Positions 5,593 through 42,091 of a DNA stretch of 64,000 nucleotides are shown here, piece by piece. This DNA comes from Escherichia coli (GTDB lineage: Bacteria > Pseudomonadota > Gammaproteobacteria > Enterobacterales > Enterobacteriaceae): the NCBI RefSeq assembly GCF_002854065.1, contig NZ_CP024147.1. One strand, 5' to 3'. The notes under the pieces are model-generated. The model was not told where the DNA came from and searched no databases. It was given only the letters and a program-made list of their open reading frames with translations. Position 1 is the stretch's first letter, and every line of letters starts with the position of its first letter. A program made the position numbers and the translations under genes.

Positions 5593-5615
5593 CAAGGCTG
5601 TACTCTGCAATTTGG

Positions 5616-5648
5616 CCCCTCATTCGCTCAGGCTGAGGGGCTTTTTTT
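5616..5648 (+). terminator. rho-independent terminator after ycfJ
   Basis: cccctcattcgctcaggctgagggg hairpin followed by T7 run. Confidence 0.65.
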
Positions 5649-5653
5649 GCGAC

Positions 5654-6526: not shown

Positions 6527-6784
6527 ATGAAAAACGTAAAAACCCTCATCGCTGCGGCGATTTTAAGCTCCATGTCATTTGCCAGCTTTGCGGCTGTCGA
6601 AGTTCAGTCAACGCCAGAAGGCCAACAAAAAGTCGGTACAATCAGTGCTAACGCGGGGACAAATCTGGGATCGCTGGAAGAGCAGCTGGCGCAAAAAGCG
6701 GATGAGATGGGCGCAAAATCTTTCCGTATTACTTCTGTAACCGGTCCGAATACCCTCCATGGAACAGCAGTAATTTATAAATAA
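6527..6784 (+). CDS. bhsA: multiple stress resistance outer membrane protein BhsA (YcfR)
   Basis: 85-aa secreted YhcN/DUF1471-family protein, signal peptide ...SFASFA. Confidence 0.88.
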   Translation: MKNVKTLIAAAILSSMSFASFAAVEVQSTPEGQQKVGTISANAGTNLGSLEEQLAQKADEMGAKSFRITSVTGPNTLHGTAVIYK

Positions 6785-6823
6785 GCATTAACCCTCATTA
6801 ATGCCTGCTACTGCTGATTTTTT

Positions 6824-6857
6824 CCCCGCGACATGCCGTGTAGCGGGGATTTTTTTT
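6824..6857 (+). terminator. rho-independent terminator after bhsA
   Basis: ccccgcgacatgccgtgtagcgggg hairpin followed by T9 run. Confidence 0.65.
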
Positions 6858-6866
6858 ATCCAGGAT

Positions 6867-7829: not shown

Positions 7830-7972
7830 CAAAAATCCATAATAAATATAAGGTTATTGTAATAAACAGATAAGCCTGAATTATGGATGGTGACAGTGTC
7901 GGATAGTGCAGGGAAGTGCAAAGAATTTGTAAATGTTGCAGATGGGGGCGCAGAAACGCCCCCGATTTACCA

Positions 7973-11419: not shown

Positions 11420-11546
11420 AACGGTTGTCAGATTCTCGTTAGGATATGCCTCAACATATGGGGGCATATCTCTGATAAGCAATGCTGTTCATTATCCGTA
11501 ATCGACATGGTTTAGCAAATTGAATCGCCCCGGCTGGGGCGATGGC

Positions 11547-12620: not shown

Positions 12621-12770
12621 CAGGACAACACGCTCTTTTTTAATTTACATGCGGTTGATCCTGCGGGTTATGACCCGAGGTGTAATGGGTATCTGTCTGT
12701 ATTGGATAATTTTTCAGATTAAGATCAGGCGGCAAGATTGATGATAAAACATGGCAATTTAGCCGATTGA

Positions 12771-16019
<3,249 letters not shown>

Positions 16020-16047
16020 AGGCAGTACATTAAAACAAGGAGCGGCA

Positions 16048-16959
16048 ATGTATTACGGGTTTGATATTGGTGGAACAAAAATTGCGCTTGGCGTGTTTGA
16101 TAGCGGTCGGCAGTTGCAGTTGGAAAAGCGGGTGCCGACACCGCGTGACAGCTATGACGCATTTTTAGATGCAGTGTGTGAGCTGGTAGCTGAAGCTGAC
16201 CAACGTTTTGGCTGTAAAGGTTCTGTCGGCATCGGTATTCCGGGAATGCCGGAAACAGAAGATGGTACGCTGTATGCCGCCAATGTCCCCGCTGCCAGCG
16301 GTAAACCGCTGCGTGCCGACCTGAGCGCACGTCTTGATCGCGATGTACGCCTTGATAACGATGCCAACTGTTTTGCCCTTTCAGAAGCCTGGGATGATGA
16401 ATTTACGCAATATCCACTGGTGATGGGGTTGATTCTCGGCACCGGCGTTGGCGGCGGGCTGATTTTCAACGGCAAACCGATTACCGGTAAAAGCTACATT
16501 ACCGGCGAGTTTGGCCATATGCGTCTGCCGGTTGATGCGTTAACCATGATGGGGTTGGATTTCCCGTTACGCCGCTGCGGCTGTGGTCAGCATGGCTGCA
16601 TTGAAAATTATCTGTCTGGTCGCGGTTTTGCGTGGCTGTATCAACACTATTATCATCAACCGTTGCAGGCTCCCGAAATTATTGCGCTTTATGATCAAGG
16701 CGATGAGCAGGCAAGGGCGCACGTTGAGCGTTATCTGGATTTATTAGCGGTTTGTCTGGGAAATATCCTGACCATTGTTGACCCTGACCTGGTCGTCATT
16801 GGTGGTGGTTTATCGAATTTCCCGGCAATCACAACGCAACTGGCGGACAGGCCGCCTCGTCATCTCTTACCTGTAGCTCGTGTTCCGCGCATTGAACGCG
16901 CGCGCCACGGTGATGCGGGAGGAATGCGTGGTGCGGCCTTCCTACATCTAACCGATTAA
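16048..16959 (+). CDS. nagK: N-acetyl-D-glucosamine kinase
   Basis: 303-aa ROK-family product [18 protein letters not shown]... Confidence 0.9.
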
Positions 16960-16974
16960 ACAACAGAGGTTGCT

Positions 16975-17796
16975 ATGCTGTCGCGTCGGGGTCATCGGTT
17001 AAGTCGTTTTCGTAAAAATAAACGCCGCCTGCGCGAGCGTTTGCGTCAGCGTATTTTTTTCAGAGATAAAGTGGTGCCGGAAGCAATGGAAAAACCAAGA
17101 GTACTCGTACTGACAGGGGCAGGAATTTCTGCGGAATCAGGTATTCGTACCTTTCGCGCTGCAGATGGCCTGTGGGAAGAACATCGGGTTGAAGATGTGG
17201 CAACGCCGGAAGGTTTCGATCGCGATCCTGAACTGGTGCAAGCGTTTTATAACGCCCGTCGTCGACAGCTGCAGCAGCCAGAAATTCAGCCTAACGCCGC
17301 GCATCTTGCGCTGGCTAAACTGCAAGATGCTCTCGGCGATCGCTTTTTGCTGGTGACGCAGAATATAGACAACCTGCATGAACGCGCAGGTAATACCAAT
17401 GTCATTCATATGCATGGGGAACTGCTGAAAGTTCGTTGTTCACAAAGTGGTCAGGTTCTCGACTGGACCGGAGACGTTACCCCAGAAGATAAATGCCATT
17501 GCTGCCAGTTCCCGGCACCCTTGCGCCCGCACGTAGTGTGGTTTGGCGAAATGCCACTCGGCATGGATGAAATTTATATGGCGTTGTCGATGGCCGATAT
17601 TTTCATTGCCATTGGTACTTCGGGGCATGTTTATCCGGCGGCTGGGTTTGTTCACGAAGCGAAACTGCATGGCGCGCACACCGTGGAACTGAATCTTGAA
17701 CCGAGTCAGGTTGGTAATGAATTTGCCGAGAAATATTACGGCCCGGCAAGCCAGGTGGTGCCAGAATTTGTTGAAAAGTTGCTGAAGGGATTATAA
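16975..17796 (+). CDS. cobB: NAD-dependent protein deacylase (sirtuin) CobB
   Basis: Sir2 motifs [10 protein letters not shown], zinc-binding CxxC...CC, catalytic region HMHGEL. Confidence 0.9.
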
Positions 17797-17806
17797 AGCA
17801 GGAAGC

Positions 17807-17908
17807 ATTGCCTGATGCGCTACGCTTATCAGGCCTACAAGGGGACGCAATTAATTGAATTTGCGGTGTTGTGGGCCGGATAAGGCGTTCGCGTCGCATC
17901 CGGCATAA
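17807..17908. repeat. REP-type palindromic repeat cluster
   Basis: gcctgatgcgctacgcttatcaggcctac ... gccggataaggcgttcgcgtcgcatccggc REP consensus. Confidence 0.55.
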
Positions 17909-17932
17909 TACACACGCATTTTACTATCTCTT

Positions 17933-18718
17933 TTACCGTTTACTCGTCAATAACAACGCGGCAATAAACGTACAGACACCAATCAGCCCTGCCCAGAGTG
18001 GCGATATTCTGGTAATCGCAAAGCTATTATCGATATACAGGCATAAAGCCTGATAGCCCATATTGGCAATAGTCATCGCCACTGCAAATTTTAATGCATA
18101 ATTAAGGCGCGTCGTGTAGTTAAAAAATGCAGTAAAGACGATAAATGCAACCGCCCAGGCAAAAAGGCCTAATGTCGTGGTGCTGCCGGGAGGATCATTC
18201 TCCTGCTGTTGTCCGGGATGCGGATAATATGTCAGTGGCGGCGTCGGTTGTTTTAATATCTGTGCTTGTAAAACAGCCAATGCATTATTGATTCCCTGAT
18301 ACCAGAGATCCGCATGTAAATAAGCCAGCGTGTGATTTTCTACCAGAAGGCCGAGATGCTTATCGTCCATGCTGCTTTCAACATGGCCGTTGGTTATCAT
18401 AATTAACCGTGGCTCGCGTGTAGTAAAAAGTAACAGAACACTTCCTTTTACATCACTCAATGAAGATGACGCATGCGCCAGCATCGCTTTGCCATTTTGC
18501 CTGAAGCTTGCTTCATTAACGCCAGGTACAACCACGATAAACGGCGCAATCCCTGTTTGTTGACGAAAAAGCTCCGCTTTCCGCGCAATCTCCTCAGCAT
18601 CCGGTACAGTACCTGTAACATCCGTAAAAAGTGTCTTCATTATTGGGATTAAGGGCTTACTGGTTACCGTCAGAGGCAGAAGTATCAGTAAACTGAGCAG
18701 TATTGTGATTTTTTTCAT
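17933..18718 (-). CDS. ycfZ: inner membrane protein YcfZ
   Basis: 261-aa ORF with signal/TM N-terminus; synteny ymfA-ycfZ. Confidence 0.8.
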
Positions 18719-19176
18719 GGACGGGACTTCCGTTTCCTGCGTGATTTTTTAGAGGAGGGCATACTGATTAATAAACCGACGGCGATAAAAATAACGCCCA
18801 TAATGCCGATAAACCCCCATTTAAAAAAATTAACCCACGGGTTATTTATCTCAGCCTTTTCAGGATGCCCGGGAGAATAATAAACATTAACTTTATCACC
18901 TTCGCTGTCTTCATAAAAATCGCTGCCAATACTCGAATTGAAAATTAGCGTGTAATCTGGCGTCGGTCGAAAGGCAACGACGGGATACCACGAACCATTT
19001 TTACCCGTGCGATGAGAATGACTGGAGTGCAAGACGGTATCAACAATGACGCCTTCGGTATGAATCGCGTCTTTGCTATAGGTGAACTAGTTATAAAAGA
19101 TAACAACAGAAATGAGGATCAGTAACAGACCGATACCGAAGAATATACGAAAGAAAACTTTACTGTCCTGACTCAT
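18715..19176 (-). pseudogene. ymfA: ymfA interrupted by in-frame TAG (codon 30 of a 153-codon frame)
   Basis: Continuous frame from ATG (rc of 19174-19176; [29 protein letters not shown]) is broken by TAG (rc of plus 19087-19089) then continues [25 protein letters not shown]... to stop at 18715; total length equals the 153-aa YmfA I recall. Confidence 0.7.
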
Positions 19177-19196
19177 TAGTCACATCCTTGCTAACT

Positions 19197-19223
19197 AAAA
19201 AACGGGCGGTAATACCACCGCCC
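19197..19223 (-). terminator. rho-independent terminator downstream of potD
   Basis: gggcggtaataccaccgccc hairpin followed on the minus strand by a T-run. Confidence 0.6.
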
Positions 19224-19233
19224 GCTTGCTGAA

Positions 19234-20280
19234 TTAACGTCCTGCTTTCAGCTTCTGATAATACTCTTCATAAATGCTGCTGGCTGCGCCAACGTCATTC
19301 TGCCATTCGCCATTTTTAATGGTTTCAGCATCCGGGTAGAGCGTCTTATCGTTCGCCACTTCTGGACTTAACAGCTTACGCGCCGCAAGGTTTGGCGTTG
19401 GATAACCGATAGTTTCAGCAACCTGTTTTGCCACATCCGGGCGCAGCAGGAAGTTGATCAATTTCAGCGCGCCTTCTTTGTTTTTGGCATTTGCCGGGAT
19501 CGCCAGGCTGTCCATCCAGAATATGCCGCCTTCTTTCGGCCACACCACGTCAATAGGCGTACCCGCCTGGCGTGCAACGAAAGCAGAACCGTTCCAGATC
19601 ATGCCGAGGTTAACTTCGCCTTCCATGTACGGGTTAGCCGGGTTATCGGAGTTAAACGCTGCGACGTTTGGCATCAGTTTTTTCAGCTCGTTATATGCAG
19701 CTTCAATCTCTTTCGGATCGGTGGTGTTACCGGAGTAGCCCAGCTTACGCAGCGCCATCTGGAACACTTCACGGGCATCGTCGGTCAACAGCAGGCTGCC
19801 TTTGTACTCTGGCTTCCACAGATCGGCCCAGCTGGTGACAGATTTTGGATCCACCGCATCACCGTTAACACCAATCGCCGTCGCACCCCAGATATACGGA
19901 ATGGAGTAATCGTTATTCGGGTCAAACGGCTTATTGAGCATGTCTGGATCGAGATTGCTGAAGTTCGTTAACTTCGACTTGTCGATCTTCTGGATCATCC
20001 CTTCTTTACGCATTTTATCGACGTAATAGGTTGAAGGAACCACCAGGTCATAGGCACCGTCTTTGTACGTTTTCAGCTTGGCATACATGGTTTCGTTCGA
20101 CTCGTAAGTCGAATAGATAACCTTAATACCGGTTTCTTTGGTGAACTGTTCAAGCAGTCCTGGCGGCACGTACTCGGTCCAGTTGTAGAAATACAGCGTG
20201 TTGTTGTCATCGGCGTGAGCGGCGCTCATGCCCAGTGCCAGAGCACCCGCCGCGAGCAGGTGGCGTGACCATTTTTTCAT
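19234..20280 (-). CDS. potD: spermidine/putrescine ABC transporter periplasmic binding protein
   Basis: 348-aa product with signal peptide; final gene of the potABCD operon. Confidence 0.95.
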   Translation of the reverse strand: MKKWSRHLLAAGALALGMSAAHADDNNTLYFYNWTEYVPPGLLEQFTKETGIKVIYSTYESNETMYAKLKTYKDGAYDLVVPSTYYVDKMRKEGMIQKIDKSKLTNFSNLDPDMLNKPFDPNNDYSIPYIWGATAIGVNGDAVDPKSVTSWADLWKPEYKGSLLLTDDAREVFQMALRKLGYSGNTTDPKEIEAAYNELKKLMPNVAAFNSDNPANPYMEGEVNLGMIWNGSAFVARQAGTPIDVVWPKEGGIFWMDSLAIPANAKNKEGALKLINFLLRPDVAKQVAETIGYPTPNLAARKLLSPEVANDKTLYPDAETIKNGEWQNDVGAASSIYEEYYQKLKAGR

Positions 20281-21071
20281 TTAACGTCCCCTGTGTTACC
20301 TTTCGTTTTATCACGAGCAATAAGCTGGCTGGCAATAACCATCACCAGCGACAGCACCAGTAATATGGTTGCCAGCGCGTTAACTTCCGGCGATACGCCG
20401 ACTTTGACCATCGAATAAATTTTTAACGGCAGAATTTCATAACTCGGCCCGGTGACGAACGAAGAAACCACCACATCGTCCATCGACAGGGTAAAGCTTA
20501 ACACCCAGCCCGCCGCCACCGCTGGCATTGCCAGTGGCAGAATGATTTTTCGCAGAATGGTAAATTCGCTGGCACCGAGATCTTTCGCCGCTTCCAGCAT
20601 TCGCACGTCAAAACCTTTCAGGCGCGAATACACCGTCACCACCACAAATGGCAGGCAGAAGGTGATATGCGAGAACAGCAGCGACCAGAAGCCAAGCTGA
20701 ATACCCAGCAGCATAAACAGCACCAGCAGCGAAATTGCCATCACGATATCTGGTGACATCATTACCACAAACAGCATTCCGCTAACGAACGGCTTACCAC
20801 GAAAGCGATAACGGTACAGTGCAACTGCCGTCAGTGAACCGATAAGCGTAGCAAACGTCGCCGAAAACACCGCCATTGTTAGTGAATGCTGCGCTGCCTG
20901 TAACAGGCTGTCGTTGTTCATCAGCAAGCTATACCATTTAGTGGTAAAACCCTGCCAGTTGATGCCAAAGCGCGAGCTGTTAAAGGAGTTCACAATCAAA
21001 ATAATGATTGGGATATACAGGTACGCGTAGATAGCGGTCATAAAACCGCCGCGAAGCAGTCGACCGATCAT
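20277..21071 (-). CDS. potC: spermidine/putrescine ABC transporter permease
   Basis: 264-aa permease; stop overlaps potD start (ATGA). Confidence 0.95.
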   Translation of the reverse strand: MIGRLLRGGFMTAIYAYLYIPIIILIVNSFNSSRFGINWQGFTTKWYSLLMNNDSLLQAAQHSLTMAVFSATFATLIGSLTAVALYRYRFRGKPFVSGMLFVVMMSPDIVMAISLLVLFMLLGIQLGFWSLLFSHITFCLPFVVVTVYSRLKGFDVRMLEAAKDLGASEFTILRKIILPLAMPAVAAGWVLSFTLSMDDVVVSSFVTGPSYEILPLKIYSMVKVGVSPEVNALATILLVLSLVMVIASQLIARDKTKGNTGDVK

Positions 21072-21925
21072 TCGAGTTCCACCTTTTTATTCAGCAGACG
21101 AGAAGCGCGCCAGTAAACCAGCAACATCAGGCCCATTACGATAGTCAGCGTAATGCTGGTGGCTGCACCAAACGGCCAGTCACGAATATTGAGGAACTGT
21201 ACCTTGATGACGTTACCGATCAGCAGGTTTTTCGCACCGCCCATCAGGTCGGACACATAGAACAGGCCCATCGCTGGCAGCATCACCAGCAGACATCCGG
21301 CAATAATCCCCGGCATCGTCAGTGGAATAATGATGCGGATAAAAGTCTGTAACTTGCTGGCACCGAGATCGCGCGCCGCCTCAAGCAACGGCTTATCCAG
21401 TTTTTCGATACTGGAGTACAGTGGCATCACCATAAACGGCAGCAGAATGTAAACCAGACCGATAATCACCGCACTGGGCGTGAACATGATACGAATTGGT
21501 GTGTCGATAACGCCCAGCCAGAGCAAAAACTCGTTGAGATAGCCTTTGGTGCTGAGGAAAATTTTCAGCCCGTAGATGCGAATCAGTGAGTTGGTCCAGA
21601 AGGGAACAATCAGCAGAAACAGCAGCAGCGGACGCACCTTGTGTGGCAGCTTCGCCAGAAACCAGGCAAACGGGTAGCCCAGCACCAGGCAGGCGAGGGT
21701 GGCGATCAGCGCCATATTCAGCGAGTGCAATAGCACTTCAAAATAGAGCGGATCGAGCAGACGCGTGTAGTTATCCAGCGTAAAGACCATTTTGACAAAA
21801 CTGGCGTCGTCGCGGGTCAAAAAGCTGGTGCCAATGATCATCAGGTTGGGCAGAAAGACAAACAACACAAGCCAACCGACAATAGTGACAATCACTACAT
21901 TCTGGAACTTACTTGTGTTCTTCAT
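21068..21925 (-). CDS. potB: spermidine/putrescine ABC transporter permease
   Basis: Permease ORF overlapping potA stop and potC start; true start may be about 10 codons inside the ORF. Confidence 0.9.
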
Positions 21926-23045
21926 CAGCCAGTACGACCTCCCAGCTTTCTACCCAATTAATGGCCATTTTTTGGTCGAGAGAGTGGTCAAAGTCAGGAT
22001 CGTCTTCATTGAAGAATTCGCTGACCATCACCATCTTGCCATTTTCCAGTTCAACAACCGACTCCAGCGTCATGCCTTTGTAGTTACGCTCGCGAACGTA
22101 ACCAATCAGCCCTTCAGCGTGGTTGTCGTCGTTAATCTCTTCAACACGTAAGTCTTCCGGGCGCAGCAGAACATGCAGTTTTTGCCCCGGTTCAACGGCG
22201 AAGTTAACGTAGATATTACATTCGCGGCCTTCAACGTTGGCGCGTACGCGCTGCTCGTCGAGACGTTCGATGACAGTGGCGTTAAACATATTGATTTCGC
22301 CAATGAACCCGGCAACAAACAGGTTTTTCGGCTCTTCATAGATTTCACGCGGCGTGCCGTCTTGCTCAATGCGACCATCGCGCATCACCACAATCCTGTC
22401 CGACATGGTGAGTGCTTCTTCCTGGTCGTGAGTCACGAAGACGAATGTAATGCCAAGCTTACGCTGTAACGCTTTCAGCTCGTTCTGCATTTGCTTGCGC
22501 AGTTTGTAATCCAGCGCTGAGAGCGACTCATCCAGCAACAACAGACGAGGCTTGTTAACTACCGCGCGAGCAATGGCGACGCGTTGCTGTTGACCACCAG
22601 AGAGCTGATGCGGTTTACGTTGAGCGAAGGTTTCCAGCTGCACCATCCGCAGGGCTTCCATCACGCGGGGCGTAATTTCAGCAGCGGGGGTTTTTTGCAT
22701 GCGCAACCCAAAGGCCACATTTTCGAACACGGTCATGTGGGGGAAAAGTGCGTAGCTTTGGAAAACAGTGTTCACATAGCGGTTTTCCGCCGGAACGTGG
22801 GTGATGTCCTCGTTATCCAACATGATGCGTCCGGAATCAACAGTTTCCAGACCTGCAATCAGGCGAAGAACGGTTGTTTTACCGCAGCCAGAAGGGCCAA
22901 GCAGCGTGAGGAACTCGCCATTGTTGATAGTCAGATCCAGCTGGGGAATGACCTCTTTACCATCAAAGCATTTGCGAATTCCCGCCAATTGCACCAGCGG
23001 TGAAAGCGAACTCGGTTGTTTATTCAATTTTTTACTCTGTCCCAT
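21909..23045 (-). CDS. potA: spermidine/putrescine ABC transporter ATPase
   Basis: 378-aa product, Walker [10 protein letters not shown], signature LSGGQQQR, Walker B LLLLDE. Confidence 0.95.
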
Positions 23046-23294
23046 GTAAACGCAACGGATGGCTTACCGATGCGGGGTTTGTGGTTAACCACCTTGGTGA
23101 CTCTTAATGAGGGCGGTAATTCTACGGCAAACCGCTTGAATCGCCAATCTTTGTTGTGAATTACTGGCTTAGCTTTATATTCATTAAGGTAATGCTGATA
23201 AATATTCCCGCTTGCAGGGGTAAAAGTGACCTGACGCAATATTTGTCTTTTCTTGCTTCTTAATAATGTTGTCACAAAAAGTGAGGGTGACTAC

Positions 23295-24521
23295 ATGGAT
23301 AAACTACTTGAGCGATTTTTGAACTACGTGTCTCTGGATACCCAATCAAAAGCAGGGGTGAGACAGGTTCCCAGCACGGAAGGCCAATGGAAGTTATTGC
23401 ATCTGCTGAAAGAGCAGCTCGAAGAGATGGGGCTTATCAATGTGACCTTAAGTGAGAAGGGCATTTTGATGGCGACGTTACCGGCTAACGTCCCTGGCGA
23501 TATCCCGGCGATTGGCTTTATTTCTCATGTGGATACCTCACCGGATTGCAGCGGCAAAAATGTGAATCCGCAAATTGTTGAAAACTATCGCGGTGGCGAT
23601 ATTGCGCTGGGTATCGGCGATGAAGTTTTATCACCGGTTATGTTCCCGGTGCTGCATCAGCTACTGGGTCAGACGCTGATTACCACCGATGGTAAAACCT
23701 TGTTAGGTGCCGATGACAAAGCAGGTATTGCAGAAATCATGACCGCGCTGGCGGTATTGCAACAGAAAAACATTCCGCATGGTGATATTCGCGTCGCCTT
23801 TACCCCGGATGAAGAAGTGGGCAAAGGGGCGAAACATTTTGATGTTGATGCCTTCGATGCCCGCTGGGCTTACACTGTTGATGGTGGTGGCGTAGGCGAA
23901 CTGGAGTTTGAAAACTTCAACGCCGCGTCGGTCAATATCAAAATTGTCGGTAACAATGTTCACCCGGGCACGGCGAAAGGAGTGATGGTAAATGCGCTGT
24001 CGCTGGCGGCACGTATTCATGCGGAAGTTCCGGCGGATGAAAGCCCGGAAATGACAGAAGGTTATGAAGGTTTCTATCACCTGGCGAGCATGAAAGGCAC
24101 CGTTGAACGGGCCGATATGCACTACATCATCCGTGATTTCGACCGTAAACAGTTTGAAGCGCGTAAACGTAAAATGATGGAGATCGCCAAAAAAGTGGGC
24201 AAAGGGTTACATCCTGATTGCTACATTGAATTGGTGATTGAAGACAGTTACTACAATATGCGCGAGAAAGTGGTTGAGCATCCGCATATTCTCGATATCG
24301 CCCAGCAGGCGATGCGTGACTGCGATATTGAACCGGAACTGAAACCGATCCGCGGCGGTACCGACGGCGCGCAGTTGTCGTTTATGGGATTACCGTGCCC
24401 GAACCTGTTCACTGGCGGTTACAACTATCATGGTAAGCATGAGTTTGTGACTCTGGAAGGTATGGAAAAAGCGGTGCAGGTGATCGTCCGTATTGCCGAG
24501 TTAACGGCGCAACGGAAGTAA
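23295..24521 (+). CDS. pepT: peptidase T (tripeptide aminopeptidase)
   Basis: 408-aa M20-family product [18 protein letters not shown]... Confidence 0.93.
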
Positions 24522-29439: not shown

Positions 29440-30081
29440 TCACAACTCCGGGGTTAAATGAGCAAGAATTTGTTTTGCCTGAGTGGTCAGGCGATTACGA
29501 GAAAACATCAGTTGCAGACGTCCGCCGCCGACCTGGTGCCAGAGCACGGCGGCGCGAATGCCTGCCAGCAGGGTTGCGCGAACTTTCGCCTGCACTTGTG
29601 GGCTTTGCAGTACAGCAGGGGAGCCGGTGACCTGAATGCGCGGGCCAAGCGGGCTAATCACATCAACATAGATAGCAGCCATCGCGCTCATCAGCGTTTC
29701 GGACTGTAAATCGAAGTGTTCGAGCTGGCGTTGCAGGCCGTTGATCCGGTTGCCCAGAGTGTCGAGCGCACCTTTCGCTGAGGAGAGTTTGCGCTCAAGC
29801 ACCATCAGGCTGAGTGTGTAGCGGGTTAATTCGGCGTTTAAGCCCTGGCGACTGCTGGCATTGAGCACGCCGAGCAGGGTTTCCAGCCCGACGCGCAGGT
29901 TGGCTTCGCTACCGCCAAAAACCGCCAGCGTCGAGCTGGGGTTCATATCAATAATACTGTTGAGTGAGACGTGTAGCGCATCGGCATCACAATGCCCCTG
30001 GTGAGCGAGTTGTTGCACCAGGCGTGCCGACTGACAAATACCGGCCAGGGCGAGGGTGATGTCATAGTAATTCTTTGCCAC
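29440..30081 (-). CDS. hflD: high-frequency lysogenization protein HflD
   Basis: 213-aa product ...[21 protein letters not shown]...; adjacent to purB/mnmA. Confidence 0.9.
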
Positions 30082-30116
30082 GTTCACTGCTTCCTTGTTT
30101 TAAGTAAAGATAATAA

Positions 30117-31738
<1,622 letters not shown>

Positions 31739-31747
31739 TTTGCATCC

Positions 31748-32398
31748 TTAATCTGTCACTTCTCGCCATTCGCCATTAGCAAGATTATCCAAAGAGTAAT
31801 CACCCATCGCATAACGAATCAGTCGCAGCGTGGGGAAACCAACATGGGCGGTCATGCGGCGCACCTGGCGATTACGTCCTTCAAATAAGGTGATCTTCAG
31901 CCAGCTGGTGGGAATACTTTTGCGTTCACGAATTGGTGGATTCCGCGGCCATAACCACGCAGGTTCGTCAACCAGCTCCGCGCCGGCGGGCAGGGTAGGG
32001 CCATCATTTAAGGTTACGCCATTGCGCAAGGCTTCAAGTGCGTCTTGTGTGGGAATACCTTCCACCTGCACATAATAGATTTTTCCGGTGCGTTTACCCG
32101 GCTGGGTTAAACGCGCCTGCAACGCGCCGTTATTGGTCAGCACCAGTAACCCTTCGCTATCGCGGTCAAGACGACCTGCTGCATAAACGCCCTGAACCGG
32201 GATGAATTCTTTTAATGCTTTGCGTCCGGCTTCATCGGTGAACTGCGGAAGAACATCGTAGGGTTTATTGAACAGGATCACACGCGTGGGCTGGTTTTCA
32301 GGTTTACGCTTAGTGGAGTGTTGCGAGTTTAGTCGACTAACCTGTTTTTTTCTAAAAGAAGATTTAGAATCGCTAAAGTATTTCATGGTAAATTCCAA
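31748..32398 (-). CDS. rluE: 23S rRNA pseudouridine synthase RluE
   Basis: 216-aa RsuA-family pseudouridine synthase (catalytic region [18 protein letters not shown]). Confidence 0.87.
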
Positions 32399-32718
32399 AT
32401 AGAGCTATACGCAGAGGGTAGCACAGTGTCGGATTGCATTGGACTTTGAAGGTACTCGTTAGAGGTTCAGGGTTCAGGCTCTTCAGCGCGGTTTCATCAA
32501 TACCTGGGTTAGTGAGCAGCGGTTGTGTGGCTGCATGGTGATAAATATGGCCCAATGAACACATTTTACATTGATGAATTGAATAAATATTGGTATGAAA
32601 AATAGTGTTTCTGTATTACTGATGGGTGACAGCACTTCACTGTTCAAGTTCAGGATGATGCTTTACCACTACCATCATCAGCAGTAATAAGAGGGGCATC
32701 GCAGCCTTCTTTTTTATT

Positions 32719-33054
32719 CTACTGATACAGCCATTTTCCCGCTTCTGCTGATTCCGCAAACATCCGTACAGTTAACGGTAAACGTGTTGTTTCTACCTCT
32801 TCCCGCTTGAGCTTGAACCATCGTTGAAGCAATGGTGCAGACTCCCACGGAAGGTACAAAGACCAGTCCAGATTATCCAGGTTAATCCCAAACCTCTCTT
32901 TGTATTTCCGTATAGCGTCCTCTAAATCATCTCGTGGATAGTCGAACAAATCAGAGTCCAGTTCTAACGGAATTTCCTTCCCGTGGTCATCCTGATAACC
33001 TGGAATCTCATCACGGAACAGTGCTAAAACTTCGTCTGTGATTGTTGTTGCCAT
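32719..33054 (-). CDS. hypothetical acidic 111-aa protein (family unassigned), translationally coupled to upstream ORF
   Basis: ATG overlaps the stop of the upstream ORF as TAATG; D/E-rich product MATTITDEVLALFRDEIPGYQDDHGKEIPLELDSDL...; an alternative GTG start at 33069 is possible; not a K-12 gene I recognise at this locus. Confidence 0.5.
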   Translation of the reverse strand: MATTITDEVLALFRDEIPGYQDDHGKEIPLELDSDLFDYPRDDLEDAIRKYKERFGINLDNLDWSLYLPWESAPLLQRWFKLKREEVETTRLPLTVRMFAESAEAGKWLYQ

Positions 33055-33503
33055 TAGAAGGAAGTCCACTTAATACGGTCTTGAGGTTTGGCAATCAGAT
33101 TGTATTTTTCCTGGGTACGAGTCGAAACCCTGTAAAGACTCATCGACAGTGAAACCCAACCAATCCACGGGACCCAACGAGCGATAATTGCAGCAAGCTT
33201 ATTAGATTTCTGCATCCTTACACCCACTGGTGTATGAACAGAAATACCAAAAGGCATGCGTGCATCTCTCATCAGTATACGCGCATACTTTGAGACAACA
33301 CTTGTTCCCAGGGTTGCCCCTTGCGGCTTCGCTCTTGTACCCAGCCAAGGTTGACCAGATAAGATTGCTGCACCTGATACCGAATCAATCCCCAATTCCT
33401 TACAGAATTCTTCAAGGAATATGACGTTGAGTAGTTCTATTTTGGACAGGTTCGGGTGTCCTCTATAGAAATATGTTCCATTGCGTTCTTCGGTAGTATC
33501 CAT
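33054..33503 (-). CDS. hypothetical 149-aa protein with C-proximal hydrophobic segment (family unassigned)
   Basis: ATG preceded by GGAG at a 9-nt spacing; hydrophobic stretch LAAIIARWVPWIGWVSLSMSLY; AGA/AGG Arg codons (atypical for E. coli core genes). Confidence 0.5.
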   Translation of the reverse strand: MDTTEERNGTYFYRGHPNLSKIELLNVIFLEEFCKELGIDSVSGAAILSGQPWLGTRAKPQGATLGTSVVSKYARILMRDARMPFGISVHTPVGVRMQKSNKLAAIIARWVPWIGWVSLSMSLYRVSTRTQEKYNLIAKPQDRIKWTSF

Positions 33504-33536
33504 TTTTCAACACTCCATTGTTATATAGTGTTTCTG

Positions 33537-33629
33537 TTACTTGAAGTTGATTTCTTCGGTTGCAGCAGATGCAGAACTAGAACCAGTAAAGGCAACGAGT
33601 GTCACAGCTATCAGTGCAAAGCGTTTCAT
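33537..33629 (-). CDS. putative 30-aa small ORF with signal-peptide-like N-terminus
   Basis: ATG preceded by GAGG at a 5-nt spacing; product MKRFALIAVTLVAFTGSSSASAATEEINFK; lies 33 nt upstream of the 149-aa ORF on the same strand. Confidence 0.3.
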   Translation of the reverse strand: MKRFALIAVTLVAFTGSSSASAATEEINFK

Positions 33630-34089
33630 GTGAACCTCAAAAAGGGTGGATGCCATAATTTACTCGTTGCTTGTCGCTTCAACCATGACTTTTGATAATT
33701 TTCCCAATAGTGCTCAAAGTGAGTTAGTCGCTGAATCGAGTAATGTCAAATTTTGACCAAATAGCACCCTGTTAGTTATCTCTGGTGGTTTTTTTATTGC
33801 TTAAAATCTGGTGTAACTAATTGATATTTAATACTTTATTTGAAGGTCGGGAAAATACTGTCTTTGGTCTAAAAGAAGTTTTTTGCATGGTATTTTCAGA
33901 GATTATGAATTGCCGCATTATAGCCTAATAACGCGCATCTTTCATGACGGCAAACAATAGGGTAGTATTGACAAGCCAATTACAAATCATTAACAAAAAA
34001 TTGCTCTAAAGCATCCGTATCGCAGGACGCAAACGCATATGCAACGTGGTGGCAGACGAGCAAACCAGTAGCGCTCGAAGGAGAGGTGA

Positions 34090-35340
34090 ATGGAAAGTAA
34101 AGTAGTTGTTCCGGCACAAGGCAAGAAGATCACCCTGCAAAACGGCAAACTCAACGTTCCTGAAAATCCGATTATCCCTTACATTGAAGGTGATGGAATC
34201 GGTGTAGATGTAACCCCAGCCATGCTGAAAGTGGTCGACGCTGCAGTCGAGAAAGCCTATAAAGGTGAGCGTAAAATCTCCTGGATGGAAATTTACACCG
34301 GTGAAAAATCCACACAGGTTTATGGTCAGGACGTCTGGTTGCCTGCTGAAACTCTTGATCTGATTCGTGAATATCGCGTTGCTATTAAAGGCCCGCTGAC
34401 CACTCCGGTTGGTGGCGGTATTCGTTCTCTCAACGTTGCCCTGCGCCAGGAACTGGATCTCTACATCTGCCTGCGTCCGGTACGTTACTATCAGGGCACT
34501 CCAAGCCCGGTTAAACACCCTGAACTGACCGATATGGTTATCTTCCGTGAAAACTCGGAAGACATTTATGCGGGTATCGAATGGAAAGCTGACTCTGCCG
34601 ACGCCGAGAAAGTGATTAAATTCCTGCGTGAAGAGATGGGCGTGAAGAAAATTCGCTTCCCGGAACATTGCGGTATCGGTATTAAGCCGTGTTCTGAAGA
34701 AGGCACCAAACGTCTGGTTCGTGCAGCGATCGAATACGCAATTGCTAACGATCGTGACTCTGTGACCCTGGTGCACAAAGGCAACATCATGAAGTTCACC
34801 GAAGGCGCGTTTAAAGACTGGGGCTACCAGCTGGCGCGTGAAGAATTTGGCGGTGAACTGATCGACGGCGGCCCGTGGCTGAAAGTTAAAAACCCGAATA
34901 CCGGCAAAGAGATCGTCATTAAAGACGTGATTGCTGATGCATTCCTGCAACAGATCCTGCTGCGTCCGGCTGAATATGATGTTATCGCCTGTATGAACCT
35001 GAACGGTGACTACATTTCTGACGCCCTGGCAGCGCAGGTTGGCGGTATCGGTATCGCCCCTGGTGCAAACATCGGTGACGAATGCGCCCTGTTTGAAGCC
35101 ACCCACGGTACTGCGCCGAAATATGCCGGTCAGGACAAAGTAAACCCAGGCTCTATTATACTCTCTGCTGAGATGATGTTACGCCACATGGGTTGGACCG
35201 AAGCCGCAGACCTGATTGTTAAAGGTATGGAAGGCGCAATCAATGCGAAGACCGTAACCTATGACTTCGAACGTTTGATGGAAGGCGCTAAACTGCTGAA
35301 ATGTTCAGAGTTTGGTGATGCGATCATCAAGAATATGTAA
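34090..35340 (+). CDS. icd: isocitrate dehydrogenase (NADP)
   Basis: 416-aa product [38 protein letters not shown]...; preceded by GGAGAGG RBS. Confidence 0.97.
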
Positions 35341-35364
35341 TCACTACATGTGTTAAATATTTAA

Positions 35365-35396
35365 ACGGGCGTATAACACGCCCGTTGTTTTATTTA
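35365..35396 (+). terminator. rho-independent terminator of icd
   Basis: acgggcgt-ataac-acgcccgt hairpin (8-bp stem) followed by a T-rich run. Confidence 0.7.
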
Positions 35397-35442
35397 TGTA
35401 GATATTATTAATAGCATATCGAGCATATTTATATAAAACCCA

Positions 35443-35766
35443 TTACTTGAGCCCATACGGGCATATTTTTATAATACAACTCTTATGCAAACATTTATTT
35501 GTTATTTCGCTTTCTCCTGGAGGACACTCTTGACTGCTTTTGAGTAAACTCCATAAATTCTTGTTGAATGGTGCAATGTTATAAATAGTAATAGGATATT
35601 CTTTATCCTTAAGGATAATACCAGGCTTAACAGGTGTAAATATACTTCCAGGAGGAAGAAATATAGTAGATTGATACCAGATGATCATTTTCATATCACC
35701 CCATATGGCTGAAAAAGATATGCCGCATGTAGGTTGAATTACCGTGTCAATTACTACCCACTTCAT
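35443..35766 (-). CDS. iraM: anti-adaptor protein IraM (RpoS stabiliser)
   Basis: 107-aa product [32 protein letters not shown]... matching my recollection of IraM/YcgW; AT-rich context. Confidence 0.82.
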
Positions 35767-36461
35767 TTGTTATGTCTTATCCCACGGTATTTAATATAGT
35801 TCATTTGGATGTTCATTTCTTTATTTTGCATATGAGTATATTACCCCTTCAAAAAATAAATTAATTAAAACGATTGCTTATATAAAACAAAACTTAAAGC
35901 AAGGAATCTCAATGGATGTTAAACAAAATGAGATTTAGTGAAAACAATAAATTATTCACTTCGTTTTAGATTTGTTTAGCTATAATGTTATACATTCAAA
36001 TGACTGAACATCCTGTAATTAAAACATAGCCTTTATGCTACTTTGTGCCAATTTGCTAAACATTATGGTTGCCTTTTTATATAACGATAATAATGAATAT
36101 AAGCATGACATGAGAATAAGGTTTCAATTTTTGAGTTATATAGGAAAGGTTTAACCTGTTCCTGGCTAAAATACATATAACTGGATGATGACTAAACCAA
36201 AACACATGTGCGTTAAGTATTGAAACGGGCGTATGGCACGCCCGTTGGTTTTATAAATATATTAACCGTTATAAAATAACGTATAGAAAGTCAAGTGATC
36301 ACATTTCAAATATCAATTTGATAGTATTGGCCTGGTGATTATTTATGGGTAGCAATAAAAGGACAGTATTTATCATCCATAGGGATAGTCTCTGTACTTT
36401 TATTCCCATTATGCTAATGCCTTACTGAATTATGAAGCATTTCTTAAGCATCCAACTTAAG

Positions 36462-36866
36462 CTAGATTAATGGTTTATTATTTTCTACATCTTCAATATA
36501 TAAAAGCGTATTATCAATGGCGTAGTAACTGCGTTTGTTATGATTAACATCAGTAACCCAACGGAAAACGCCCGCGTCTGCCAGTGTTGAACAGTATTCC
36601 CGAAATGTAGATTTTCCGCAAATATGAAGCAATGCGGCCTCTTTTATTTTAGCAGGGTTCTTGGTCGTACTAACTTTTAACAGGTTCCTGGTTCCTCTTA
36701 ATAACAAAACCGTGTCATCGTGAGTAATAATTCTGATGTTATCCGTAGCCAGATAATAAATGTAATGTGCAATACGGTGATGTTTTAATTCTGAATAAAA
36801 CCAGGAGAAGTTTTGCTCTTTTCTCACTTGCTCAAACATCTTTTGAAAAACAACGACCTGATCCAT
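36462..36866 (-). CDS. ycgX: uncharacterised protein YcgX
   Basis: 134-aa ORF at the conserved position between iraM and bluR. Confidence 0.75.
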   Translation of the reverse strand: MDQVVVFQKMFEQVRKEQNFSWFYSELKHHRIAHYIYYLATDNIRIITHDDTVLLLRGTRNLLKVSTTKNPAKIKEAALLHICGKSTFREYCSTLADAGVFRWVTDVNHNKRSYYAIDNTLLYIEDVENNKPLI

Positions 36867-37086
36867 CAGGATAATAACCTCTTGTTAGTTGTGAGACTGC
36901 GTAGTGTGCACGATCGGTTTTACCACTTCAATCTGGTCTGTCCTTTGGCTGTGATATGTACAAAGTGTGAAAGGGGGATTACCTGAATTCTCCCGGTGAG
37001 CATTTTGTAATGGACCAGCTCCGGTACAAACGCTGTTGTGGGTTCAGATTATAACATTCTGTCTAAGGGGCGGGATAAAGGTGAAA

Positions 37087-37818
37087 TTAGGGGGCATGAA
37101 AGATGACTTTATAACCTTGCTCACCCCAGTGTTGTAAAAGTTCATTTTGCCTTCTCGTTGGTGCCATGCCTGTCCAGACAATCAATGTTTGCGTCGGGAA
37201 CAGTTCCGGGCGCGGTGATTCAATGGGATCAGCAAGAACAGAAATATGCCATCCTGACAATGATAAACGCCATGCTTCCAGCCACAATCGAGCTCTCTCT
37301 TCAACATTCCACGCCATCAGAATGGCTTCTTTACCGGGCTTACGGCGCATTTCGAAAAGCGAGGCTGCTGCGTATTCAATTAGTGCGCCGTCAAACATAC
37401 TGCTCATAATGCGGGAGGTGTTGTGATCAAGCACGAGACGCTGGCGAACAGGAAGGTAAACATGATTAATCAATTGATCTACTGGGTACTCTCGACCCAG
37501 TGAAATAATTCTCGCGCGTAGTTTGGCAGGATTAGCCATACGAAGAATTGACATCATCTCTTCTTGCAGGCGGCTCCAGTCATCTTCCGTATCCTGGCTG
37601 GTGGTTTCCAGTAATGCTTTAACTTTGCCTACAGGGACGCCATTACTTATCCAACGCTTGATCTCTTCGATACGTTGTATGTCTTCTTCATCAAAGAGTC
37701 GGTGTCCGCCTTCACTGCGCTGTGGTTTTAACAAACCGTAGCGGCGTTGCCAGGCCCGGAGAGTGACAGGATTAATCCCGCAACGTTCAGCAACATCACC
37801 AATGCTGTAATAAGCCAC
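37087..37818 (-). CDS. bluR: MerR-family repressor BluR (YcgE)
   Basis: 243-aa product with N-terminal MerR HTH ([32 protein letters not shown]). Confidence 0.9.
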
Positions 37819-37868
37819 AATTCCTCCTTGCGGTCACAAATCTCCGTCGCCTGTACACGACCCAATAA

Positions 37869-37904
37869 TACTTTGTACAATATACGCTAAAATTGTACAA
37901 AGTA
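37869..37904. promoter_or_regulatory. inverted repeat (13-bp arms) in bluR upstream region, candidate operator
   Basis: tactttgtacaat - 10 bp - attgtacaaagta, perfect 13-bp inverted repeat 50-85 bp upstream of the bluR start. Confidence 0.35.
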
Positions 37905-38022
37905 TAAATAAGATTTCAGCTAAATTGGATGAAACATTATTTTTAATGTGGATTAAATTAAAACATAACGTATTCATTTTCACGATGATTTCCAGAAAAC
38001 TTGCAAAATAATGTGCTGAAAA

Positions 38023-39234
38023 TTATTTTTTCTCCGGCCACGCAACTGAAGGGATACCATTCAATTTAGCTTTAGCAAACAGATCCCCCTGAAACATCTC
38101 AATTCCTGCGGATTCAAGCCACATCCACTCTTCTGGTGTTGCCACGCCCATAGCACTGACTTGAATTTCAAGTGATGTACAGCATTTTATGATCGCCTGA
38201 ATAATTGCCTGCCGTGGTCCGCTTTTATGAACATTGGTAATCAATTCCTGACTGATTTTAATTCTGTCAGGCTGGAAGCGTGACAGGAGTAACAAACCAG
38301 CAAAACCTGCGCCAAAATGATCAATTGCTACACTGATACCGGCAGCCTTTAGCGATTTAACCGCTTCGGCAAACTCATCAAACCGAGATATGACTTCACT
38401 TTCAGTAAATTCAACGATGATTTGTTCAGGCACCAGACCATTGGCCTTTATTTCATCAAGTAAAAAAGAGACTGCGTCAGGCTCGTTAACCAGGGTCATA
38501 GGTAATAGATTGATAGATATCATTTTATCACCGAGCTCAAGTGCGTGTGCCATCGCGAATACAAGCGCCTTACTTTTGAGATCCGCTGTGTAGATTTCCC
38601 CGTCTTTACGCTGCCCAACCGCTATAGCTGACGGGCTGTCTTCATTTTTTTGCACAATGGCTTCAAAAGCGATTATCCGCCGCGATAAGGGATCAACAAT
38701 AGGATGAAAGGCAAAGTGGTCGTTTATATTTGGTGAAAGGGTACAGGAATCAAGTTCTTTATCAGATCTGTCAGCGATAAAAAGCCAGGAGTCTTCAGCA
38801 GGGATCTCGAAATAGGTTGATTGTTCGGTTGCAAGGACAAAAGTACGAAAAAATTGTAGCGCTCTGTCATCATAAGTTAGCTGAAATTTTGATGTGCCTT
38901 TGTCGAATACGGCCTGTAAAACGTCATCTCGCTCGTGCAGGCGTAAATCAAATAATTCCATTCCTGCTTTACCAAAACGGCGAGCAGGCGCGTAATCGCA
39001 CAACAGTTCAACAATATTATAGTGCCGAGGATCCTGGCATATAGCCCGATATATCATTTGAACCTGTTCTTCCGGACCTTCCAGAAGCTGGAAAAAATGA
39101 GAACCATTAAACAGTAAGATCCCTGTTACGTCAGACTGCATGTTCCTGCGATTTGCTATCGAAACCATTTCTTCGATTTTTTTGACAGGTTCGTCGTCAC
39201 GTATATGGCTACGATAAATAAGGGTGGTAAGCAT
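38023..39234 (-). CDS. bluF: blue-light sensor BluF (BLUF plus degenerate EAL domain; YcgF)
   Basis: 403-aa product from MLTTLIYRSHIRDD...; BLUF N-terminus and EAL-like C-terminus. Confidence 0.9.
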   Translation of the reverse strand: MLTTLIYRSHIRDDEPVKKIEEMVSIANRRNMQSDVTGILLFNGSHFFQLLEGPEEQVQMIYRAICQDPRHYNIVELLCDYAPARRFGKAGMELFDLRLHERDDVLQAVFDKGTSKFQLTYDDRALQFFRTFVLATEQSTYFEIPAEDSWLFIADRSDKELDSCTLSPNINDHFAFHPIVDPLSRRIIAFEAIVQKNEDSPSAIAVGQRKDGEIYTADLKSKALVFAMAHALELGDKMISINLLPMTLVNEPDAVSFLLDEIKANGLVPEQIIVEFTESEVISRFDEFAEAVKSLKAAGISVAIDHFGAGFAGLLLLSRFQPDRIKISQELITNVHKSGPRQAIIQAIIKCCTSLEIQVSAMGVATPEEWMWLESAGIEMFQGDLFAKAKLNGIPSVAWPEKK

Positions 39235-39547
39235 TAACTGTCCAGGGTAATGGGAGAGGCGAGAGTAAGACGGTAACAGACATATCTTCCGGTGTCTTTC
39301 TTTTAATACCAAAACATAACTGTTTCTTTACATTGATAAAAAATGGAAAAAGTTGAACACGAGTTGGCGAAAAATCTTGTATAGGTTGTCAGTTAAATGA
39401 TGCAATATGTTTTATCATAACGTATTGTTTTATATGCATTAGCACTAATTGCAAAAAATTAATTTATCATTCTGTACACATATTTCGTACAAGTTTGCTA
39501 TTGTTACCTCACTTAACATTGATTAACATTTTTAACAGAGGCGTAGC

Positions 39548-39784
39548 ATGCATCAAAATTCAGTGACTTTAGATTCTGCGGGAGCAATCACTCGTTACTT
39601 TGCAAAAGCTAACTTGCCTACTCAGCAGGAAACTCTCGGGGAAATTGTGACTGAGATTTTGAAAGATGGACGTAATCTGAGTCGAAAGTCGCTTTGTGCC
39701 AAACTTCTTTGCCGACTGGAACAAGCGACAGGGGAAGAGGAACAGAAACATTATAATGCACTAATTGGGTTGCTTTTTGAATAA
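39548..39784 (+). CDS. ycgZ: small protein YcgZ (connector of two-component signalling)
   Basis: 78-aa ORF with good RBS, divergent from bluF. Confidence 0.85.
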   Translation: MHQNSVTLDSAGAITRYFAKANLPTQQETLGEIVTEILKDGRNLSRKSLCAKLLCRLEQATGEEEQKHYNALIGLLFE

Positions 39785-39813
39785 TGCAACAGCCTGATTA
39801 TTTGGATTTGCCC

Positions 39814-40719
39814 CTATATTTCCAGACATCTGTTATCACTTAACCCATTACAAGCCCGCTGCCGCAGATATTCCCGTGGCGAGCGATAACCCAGCGCACT
39901 ATGCGGATGCCATTCGTTATAATGCTCGAACGCCTCTGCAAGGTTCTTTGCTGCCGTTAACCCGTCTGGTTTGGGCATGATACTGATGTAGTCACGCTTT
40001 ATCGTTTTCACGAAGCTCTCTGCTATTCCGTTACTCTCCGGACTCCGCACCGCCGTGTTCTTCGGTTCAAGTCCCAACATCCGGGCGAACTGGCGTGTTT
40101 CATTAGCCCGGTAGCATGAACCATTATCCGTCAGCCACTCCACTGGAGACGACGGAAGATCGTTGCCGAAGCGGCGTTCCACCGCTCCCAGCATGACGTC
40201 CTGTACTGTTTCACTGTTGAAGCCGCCGGTAGTGACCGCCCAGTGCAGTGCCTCACGATCACAGCAGTCCAGCGCGAACGTGACACGCAGTCTCTCTCCG
40301 TTATCACAGCAGAACTCGAACCCGTCAGAGCACCATCGCTGATTGCTTTCTTTCACGGCCACTCTGCCTGTATGTGCCCGTTTCGATGGCGGTACAGCAG
40401 GTTTTCGCTCAAGCAACAGCGCATTCTAGCGCATGATCCGGTAAACACGTTTGGCATTGATCGCAGGCATACCATCAAGTTCTGCCTGTCTGCGAAGCAG
40501 CGCCCATACCCGACGATAACCATACGTGGGCAGCTCTCCGATAACATGGTGTATACGGAGAAGCACATCCGTATCATCAGTGTGACGACTGCGGCGGCCA
40601 TCCATCCAGTCATCGGTTCGTCTGAGAATGACGTGCAACTGCGCACGCGACACCCGGAGACAACGGCTGACTAAGCTTACTCCCCATCCCCGGGCAATAA
40701 GGGCGCGTGCGCTATCCAC
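39814..40719 (-). pseudogene. insD: IS2 transposase OrfB (InsD) interrupted by in-frame TAG at codon 98
   Basis: Frame [12 protein letters not shown]...AKRVYRIMR / TAG (rc of plus 40426-40428) / [20 protein letters not shown]...; canonical IS2 has Gln at this position as I recall. Confidence 0.75.
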
Positions 40720-41042
40720 TTTTTTGCCCGTCCATATTCAACGGCTTCTTTGAGGAGTTCATTTTCCATCGTTTTCTTGCCGAGCAGGCGCTGGAGTTCT
40801 TTAATCTGCTTCATGGCGGCAGCAAGTTCAGAGGCAGGAACAACCTGTTCTCCGGCGGCGACAGCAGTAAGACTTCCTTCCTGGTATTGCTTACGCCAGA
40901 GAAATAACTGGCTGGCTGCTACACCATGTTGCCGGGCAACGAGGGAGACCGTCATCCCCGGTTCAAAGCTCTGCTGAACAATTGCGATCTTTTCCTGTGT
41001 GGTACGCCGTCTGCGTTTCTCCGGCCCTAAGACATCAATCAT
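40677..41042 (-). CDS. insC: IS2 transposase OrfA (InsC)
   Basis: 121-aa product [34 protein letters not shown]... Confidence 0.9.
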
Positions 41043-41162
41043 CTGTTCTCCAATGACTAGTCTAAAAACTAGTATTAAGACTATCACTTATTTAAGTGAT
41101 ATTGGTTGTCTGGAGATTCAGGGGGCCAGTCTATTATTTAACAGGTTAGCTATGAAGTCGTT

Positions 41163-41435
41163 ATGAAGACATCTGATAATGAAAGTATAAAATATGAAAT
41201 TACTGGCCAGGCGGTGCTCCAGATACTGCGCATGAAGATAAATTTTTCGGTGCAGACTCTTATTAAGCAATTACTCGTAATGAAATCGGCTGAGGAAAAT
41301 GCTTTCCGACGAGATTTAATTGACAGCATAATTCGTGATTTTAGCAACAGTGATACAGGAGGGCCAAACCGAAGAACAGCGATAGCTGACAATAAAAGTA
41401 TGTTCAATGGTAAGAAAATAAACAGAATACATTAA
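41163..41435 (+). CDS. ymgA: small protein YmgA (connector/biofilm-related)
   Basis: 90-aa ORF, first gene after the IS2. Confidence 0.82.
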   Translation: MKTSDNESIKYEITGQAVLQILRMKINFSVQTLIKQLLVMKSAEENAFRRDLIDSIIRDFSNSDTGGPNRRTAIADNKSMFNGKKINRIH

Positions 41436-41463
41436 AATTTCATAAGTAAGATGAGAGGTTACC

Positions 41464-41730
41464 ATGCTTGAAGATACTACAATTCATAATGCAATAACTG
41501 ATAAAGCGTTATCAAGTTACTTTCGCAGTTCGGGTAATTTGTTAGAAGAAGAGTCAGCAGTGTTAGGGCAGGCTGTGACTAATTTAATGCTTTCAGGCGA
41601 TAATGTTAATAATAAAAATATTATCTTAAGTCTGATACACTCCCTGGAAACAACAAGTGATATTCTCAAAGCTGACGTGATCAGAAAAACACTGGAAATC
41701 GTGTTGCGATACACAGCGGATGACATGTAA
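41464..41730 (+). CDS. ariR: AriR (YmgB), regulator of acid resistance/biofilm
   Basis: 88-aa ORF with GAGAGG RBS. Confidence 0.85.
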
Positions 41731-41842
41731 CTTTTAATTATTAAGTATAAGTTTATAGAAAACTCATTCATCTTATTTTTGTCTGTCGCTTTAGACTATA
41801 CACAGCATAATTTTATTGGGTTAATATTTCTACGAGGCTGAC

Positions 41843-42091
41843 ATGAATAATTCAATCCCAGAGAGATTTATTTTTCAATGTGCTTTGTTTAAAAATCTCG
41901 AGAGGGAGGTATTCATGACGCATGGGTATGTTGATAGTCATATTATTGATCAGGCTTTACGCTTGCGTTTAAAAGATGAAACCAGTGTGATTCTTTCTGA
42001 TCTCTATCTGCAAATCTTGCAGTACATTGAAATGCATAAGACTACACTAACGGATATCATTATTAATGACAGGGAATCCGTGCTCTCTTAG
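41843..42091 (+). CDS. ymgC: small protein YmgC
   Basis: 82-aa ORF, TAG stop. Confidence 0.78.
   Translation: MNNSIPERFIFQCALFKNLEREVFMTHGYVDSHIIDQALRLRLKDETSVILSDLYLQILQYIEMHKTTLTDIIINDRESVLS

Follow-up and report, generated by a model that had tools for sequence, protein, structure and literature searches.

In a 64,000-nucleotide stretch of Escherichia coli DNA (RefSeq assembly GCF_002854065.1, contig NZ_CP024147.1; hereafter the window), positions 35176-35393 very probably form an unoccupied bacterial attachment site (attB) for tyrosine integrases of the e14 and phage 21 types, lying in the 3' end of icd, the gene for isocitrate dehydrogenase, in a non-K-12 strain closest to E. coli CUWW06. 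This 218-bp cassette, on the plus strand, comprises the last 165 bp of icd and 53 bp beyond its stop codon, including the terminator; it is a phage-carried stretch, present here as a single resident copy of a 21-like allele class. The icd gene, its terminator and the chromosomal flank are contiguous, and one cassette is found.

The K-12 MG1655 locus from hflD to ariR, with all of e14 included, was compared by blastn with the whole 64-kb window. Its flanks matched in three blocks (K-12 locus 1-2416 to window 29950-32365, 2402-3925 to 33868-35391, and 18914-23545 to 35176-39803), and the e14 interior (K-12 locus 3926-18913) had no match anywhere in the window. According to this comparison and to the 102-bp gap between the two genes, no e14 gene (lit, intE, xisE, the ymf genes, pinE or mcrA) lies between icd and iraM. 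A nucleotide profile built from ten 218-bp icd-end cassettes and run on the window with nhmmer recovered a single full copy (35177-35393, E 7e-80), and no second, icdC-like copy of the 165-bp icd 3' coding fragment in the 64 kb. From mfd to nhaB the window consists of core chromosome, with no prophage in it; the absence of e14 is confirmed across its whole length. An earlier note, made from the letters alone, had reported an uninterrupted icd 3' end lacking e14, and both searches bear this out. The alignment it proposed, to K-12 icd and icdC and to the e14 ends, returned a flank of K-12 chromosomal type and no e14 DNA; the finding of e14 DNA or of an icdC duplicate by the locus, which the note had named as speaking against its claim, was not made in the window. 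Its remark that no icdC-like duplicate is present stands for the coding sequence, having overlooked a duplicated terminator at 36206-36251, considered below.

The icd gene occupies 34090-35340 on the plus strand as an intact open reading frame (ORF) of 416 aa (Pfam Iso_dh, 5.5e-92), and its DNA is 100% identical to that of genomes in which the Icd product is annotated as WP_000444487.1. After the stop codon, a GC-rich hairpin followed by a U-tract is predicted to act as an intrinsic (Rho-independent) terminator (35364-35396, plus strand), the hairpin at 35364-35386 having a 9-bp stem with 6 GC pairs, a 5-nt loop, and a folding energy of -19.8 kcal/mol (z = -4.15 against shuffled sequences). 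This terminator is of the chromosomal type (AACGGGCGTATAACACGCCCGTT), in contrast to the e14 type of K-12 (AACGGGAGCGTAACGCTCCCGTT). The flank that follows (35394-35442) matches the K-12 sequence downstream of icdC and not a phage P arm, with 4 differences from K-12 over 67 positions versus 51 of 67 from the e14 arm. An e14-type icd end with its terminator and arm (GTTATCAAAA repeats) was not found directly 3' of icd, where 15 of the 165 coding and 16 of the 53 post-stop positions differ. The next gene is iraM (35443-35766, minus strand), a syntenic orthologue of the 107-aa K-12 IraM anti-adaptor, lying between icd and ymgK/ycgX and identical to it at 101 of 107 residues. It had been described as starting about 100 bp after icd; the spacing is right (102 nt from stop codon to stop codon), the wording slightly off, since icd and iraM are convergent and it is the iraM stop codon, not its start, that lies 102 nt beyond the icd stop. 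An Rfam scan of 32000-42000, with E values up to 0.1, gave no match.

Phage genomes were searched with window positions 35040-35460, and the stretch shared with lambdoid phages was 35176-35393. The best match is the "phage 21" icd fragment from a lysogen of ECOR38 (AF017626.1, in which int follows), at 98.6% identity (215/218). The cassette is 96-97% identical to its counterparts in phages ev017, 4A7, 1W, 3W and Perceval, 92.5% to phage 21, and about 91-92% to both K-12 ends, with the coding part differing from icdC at 14 of 165 positions and the first 1,050 bp of icd differing from K-12 at 16 (~1.5%). Across the 21-type phages (21, ev017, 4A7, D2, Sakai Sp8 and NC-SV), identity of the window cassette to their icd copies ranges from 92 to 98.6%, and PMC12803456 places the integrated NC-SV in icd, at the site used by phage 21. 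The icd fragment of phage 21 (OL657228) is annotated as a pseudogene with a terminator, and the 218 bp of the window are its counterpart. Phage-type sequence is tracked as far as ...GTTGTTTTAT, at 35393, where the K-12 chromosomal flank takes over and not a P arm, which in phage 21 consists of CCCCAAAAC repeats annotated as attP subsites. Unlike the 21-type phages, the window thus has no P arm with CCCCAAAAC repeats, no int or xis and no other phage gene after the terminator, and a prophage of this type at icd was not detected; the native flank is there instead.

The probable site of strand exchange was located by comparing attP (phages 21 and ev017), attL (Sakai, 20KM0223N and K-12), attR (LF82, GDSC2227PM and K-12) and attB (the window and BL21). 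Across these four kinds of site, the bases switch between phage type and host type from icd nt 1092 to 1098, and the exchange region for 21-type and e14 integrases would accordingly fall within the motif CGCCA at 35182-35186 on the plus strand. From CGCCA rightwards the window shows no difference from the attR junctions of LF82 and GDSC2227PM, and to the left of the motif the bases ATGTTA match attL of Sakai, 20KM0223N and ECOR38; the putative exchange region is thus conserved with sites known to be used, and the attB of the window is probably competent for integration. Among species-representative genomes, phage arms were also observed directly 3' of the icd terminator in Escherichia albertii (21-like) and in Citrobacter braakii and Citrobacter sp. 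Cu233 (e14-like, with GTTATCAAAA repeats), indicating that the icd site is used across genera.

Integration of e14 and phage 21 at icd was reportedly described by Hill and co-workers in 1989 and by H. Wang and co-workers in 1997. The phages bring a 218-bp cassette of their own, a second icd end already equipped with a terminator. When the integrase recombines the DNA at a short region near the left edge of the cassette (probably ~35182-35186), the phage end is joined to the host gene, and the host icd end is left as an icdC fragment at the opposite border of the prophage; with one end swapped for the other, icd stays functional throughout. Excision by the integrase restores the resident end, and in the window integration has either never occurred or has left no trace. 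The occupied state is found on a near-identical background in GDSC2227PM, where icd is adjoined by inserted DNA that includes mcrC and a gene for an AAA ATPase. There, the displaced cassette is a pseudogene fragment beside iraM, 100% identical to the window (query nt 7-285). At the one end of this insert that was examined, these two genes sit immediately upstream of the displaced fragment.

The C-terminus of Icd had also been offered as an indication of the empty state. The window protein carries E398, D410 and K414 and, as the earlier note had stated, differs by two residues from the K-12 lysogen protein (D398E and E414K). It differs by two residues, E410D and E414K, from the native end encoded by K-12 icdC as well. 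The note's further step, that this is the native, non-lysogen form, does not hold, as icdC differs by these 2 aa and by 14 of 165 nt and phages encode the same end. The terminal residues ...GDAIIKNM occur in the phage-borne attL copies of O157:H7 Sakai (prophage Sp8), 20KM0223N and ECOR38 and are encoded by the free phages ev017, 21 and D2, while WP_000444487.1 is the Icd accession annotated in the non-lysogen BL21 too. As these residues are common to phage-borne and resident copies, the C-terminus cannot separate a lysogen from a non-lysogen and should not serve as a marker of lysogeny. Compared at the nucleotide level, the icd end of the window is a third, strongly diverged end and not the K-12 native form. 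It is nevertheless a genuine resident allele: in the lysogen GDSC2227PM the displaced icdC fragment next to iraM is 100% identical to the window cassette, and in another lysogen, LF82, the displaced resident copy matches it at 98.6%.

A locus free of e14 could in principle come from a K-12 laboratory strain cured of the element, and the lack of e14 together with a K-12-like gene order from icd to ycgZ would agree with such an origin. The window shares with K-12 icd::e14 the gene order outside the prophage, the attachment site in the last 165 bp of icd, and the flank from the terminator to iraM; it departs from it in having no e14 or icdC, a single cassette, and the 15 of 165 and 14 of 165 differences from the e14-borne end and icdC, respectively. 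The icd end expected in a cured K-12 is the icdC sequence, whereas the window differs from it at those 14 nt and 2 aa, its identity to K-12 is only 96.7-98% by blastn, and both an insertion between rluE and icd and an IS2 copy between ycgZ and ymgA are absent from K-12. The closest genome is instead that of CUWW06, isolated from wastewater in Thailand, which is 100% identical apart from differently placed insertion sequence (IS) copies. Divergence, the rluE-icd insertion and the icdC mismatch rule out a cured K-12, which we regard as having next to no probability. The architecture of BL21 (E. coli B) is the same as that of the window, with icd, ~102 bp, iraM, ymgK, the second terminator copy, a ymgL-like ORF and ycgX in order, and the two differ at 10 nt over the 218-bp cassette and at 17 over the first 1,050 bp of icd.

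Where the cassette in this empty site came from is a separate matter. It is part of a pool common to phages and chromosomes, and falls in the class carried by 21-like phages. In DSM 103246 the cassette is the same (0/218) but the upstream haplotype is another, with 3 differences in the adjoining 36 bp and 7 in the first 1,050, and differences from the window number 16 for K-12 and 17 for BL21 in the first 1,050 bp as against 14 and 7 in the cassette. The excess divergence confined to the cassette, the cases of DSM 103246 and LF82 and the discordance between K-12 and BL21 together indicate that the segment moves horizontally, for which phages are the obvious vehicle, and the high diversity of the cassette probably reflects exchange with them. 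In 1997 Wang, Whittam and Selander reportedly described how phages replace the 3' end of icd in ECOR strains, and the ECOR38 record AF017626.1 probably comes from their study. The same excess, mosaic diversity limited to the terminal cassette, with alleles common to prophages and chromosomes, is seen here, and the window is one more example. One specific form of such movement would be a scar: a 21-like prophage lost by RecA-type recombination between its two cassettes, not by integrase excision, so that the phage-derived icd end was left on the native flank, with the crossover in the terminator, the longest stretch of perfect identity (~47 bp, judged by eye in the alignment). We consider this possible, at a little less than an even chance. 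It accords with the 215/218 match to the ECOR38 prophage copy, set beside 96-97% to free lambdoid phages and ~91-92% to the K-12 ends, with the similarity ending exactly where phage-host homology does (35393) and the native flank begins, with the DSM 103246 cassette on its other upstream haplotype, and with near-identical cassettes on further chromosomal backgrounds such as LF82. Yet the direction of transfer is not readable from similarity, as phages must themselves have captured host alleles, and in GDSC2227PM and LF82 this allele sits in the displaced resident copy and so predates those integrations. Four differences from K-12 (icd nt 1056-1077) moreover fall just upstream of where homology to phages begins, and neither P arm nor int gene has left a remnant. 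The longer, 337-bp icd fragment of phage D2, tried as the source of these four differences, was rejected, as it has the K-12 bases there, and the "phage" record ON470584, with a full-length icd, includes host flank (rluE and DUF1493) and is therefore uninformative on phage-borne fragments. Vertical inheritance, in which the cassette is the ancestral icd end of the lineage and the phage copies were captured from similar hosts, is a tentative alternative that we hold to be only slightly less likely than the scar. About 30 complete genomes carry a cassette at least 99% identical, single-copy and unoccupied, close relatives, PS10-3 among them, agree with the window in the cassette as well as in the upstream icd haplotype, and the closely related lysogen GDSC2227PM retains it as its displaced resident copy, all of which fit such a history; against it, the cassette diverges by 5-9% versus 1-1.8% in the rest of icd, and its relationships are discordant with those of the rest of icd and the flanks (K-12 versus BL21), which points to horizontal movement.

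The duplicated terminator mentioned above (36206-36254, plus strand) is a diverged repeat of the terminator that follows the icd stop codon; its hairpin is at 36224-36246, and the copy as a whole corresponds to 35346-35393, 860 bp upstream. It consists of a 43-nt repeat at 86% identity, was detected by nhmmer as a 46-nt partial match (36206-36251, E 1.4e-7), reaches a local alignment score of 64 against a maximum of 28 among shuffled sequences, and was scored as terminator-like. Upstream of it no similarity to icd coding sequence was found, the local alignment stopping 5 nt after the position of the stop codon. The copy is also present in K-12, where the stem has a non-compensated mismatch, and in BL21, FDAARGOS_448, PS10-3 and CUWW06.

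The two terminator copies bound an AT-rich iraM-ymgK segment of 861 bp (35394-36254; GC 0.27-0.35) that is subject to presence/absence polymorphism, being present in 3943 of 5426 genomes and missing from ~27%. A query for the segment-free state was built by joining the cassette and its terminator to the flank that follows the second copy; this junction was at least 80% covered, the cut-off applied, in 1039 genomes, examples being Z1323CEC0015, LF82, NC101 and NRG 857C. In Z1323CEC0015 the site is unoccupied, and icd runs directly into the ymgL-like ORF and then ycgX; a recent deletion from a BL21-like strain, considered for this genome, is unsupported, its identity to BL21 being only 98.8%. 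An outgroup scan for the terminator hairpin, with one genome per species, gave relevant matches that were all lysogens (E. albertii and the two Citrobacter genomes) and returned no E. coli or E. fergusonii locus. The polymorphism may stem from insertion of the segment or from its deletion between the two terminator repeats.

In function, iraM encodes a stabiliser of RpoS under PhoPQ control. Its product matches phrog_4407 (1e-50), and full-length homologues of 65% identity occur in 46 phage records, most of them of Stx2-converting phages; a single phage was examined, in which the homologue (locus L014, 5001-5324) lies between stx2B and a nanS-like esterase gene and is encoded on the other strand from these two. 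Past the second terminator copy, ycgX (36462-36866, minus strand) is likewise a gene of a phage family (Pfam DUF1398, 1e-47; phrog_413, 1e-41). We tentatively propose, granting it somewhat below even probability, that the DNA downstream of icd represents stacked leftovers of old phages, in which iraM would be a domesticated phage gene from an earlier integration at the same attB and the second terminator a fossil attachment-site end. The flank after the second copy may be a fossil attL arm. At 36255-36305 (TAACCGTTATAAAAT...CAAGTGATCA) it was observed to resemble weakly, in the same register relative to the terminator, the e14-type arm (TAACGGTTATCAAAAT...AAGTTATCA), with a marginal p of ~0.02 by shuffling; it showed no similarity to the 21-type arm, and the flank after the first copy resembles neither arm type. 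As iraM is present here without e14, the statement in the literature that places it on the e14 prophage (PMC4045071) is corrected: iraM is not part of e14.

Further features of the genomic background lie outside the attachment site. Relative to K-12, the rluE-icd gap of the window holds a 1.5-kb insertion (32366-33867) flanked by an 11-bp direct repeat, TCTAAAAGAAG, of which K-12 has one copy. Its two genes, both on the minus strand, encode a DUF1493 protein (32719-33069) and an STM2901-family protein (33054-33503), and both match PHROG families of unknown function; BL21, in contrast to the window, has no such insertion upstream of icd. The IS2 copy of the ycgZ-ymgA gap (39804-41132), absent from K-12, is bordered by a 5-bp target duplication, TTATT, and its orfB is split into ORFs of 97 and 200 aa. 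It has one mismatch to the IS2 copy of CUWW06, which is located elsewhere, namely between the DUF1493 and STM2901-family genes; CUWW06 also carries IS1 in the icd-iraM gap and in bluF.

An empty icd attachment site is an ordinary and already known state of E. coli. The window is covered to 80% or more by over 5300 genomes. Among complete E. coli genomes, icd, iraM and ycgX are contiguous in at least 3002 of 5425, and the cassette is contiguous with a flank of the window type in 3839. Across 5422 genomes there are 7327 occurrences of the 218-bp cassette; many genomes therefore have a second copy and are lysogens. When the best copy per record was compared with the window, identity was at least 99% in 53, 95-99% in 2901 and 90-95% in 2466, a spread that indicates many allele classes. 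The window thus exemplifies a non-K-12, e14-free state of the locus common to more than half of sequenced E. coli, which carries little weight alone. The terminator-bounded iraM segment offers a small and modest lead on the route by which an RpoS-stabilising gene entered E. coli. More broadly, the icd locus illustrates how phages that target the 3' end of a gene preserve its function by supplying a spare end, and since phages carry such spare ends, the end of icd is unusually diverse.

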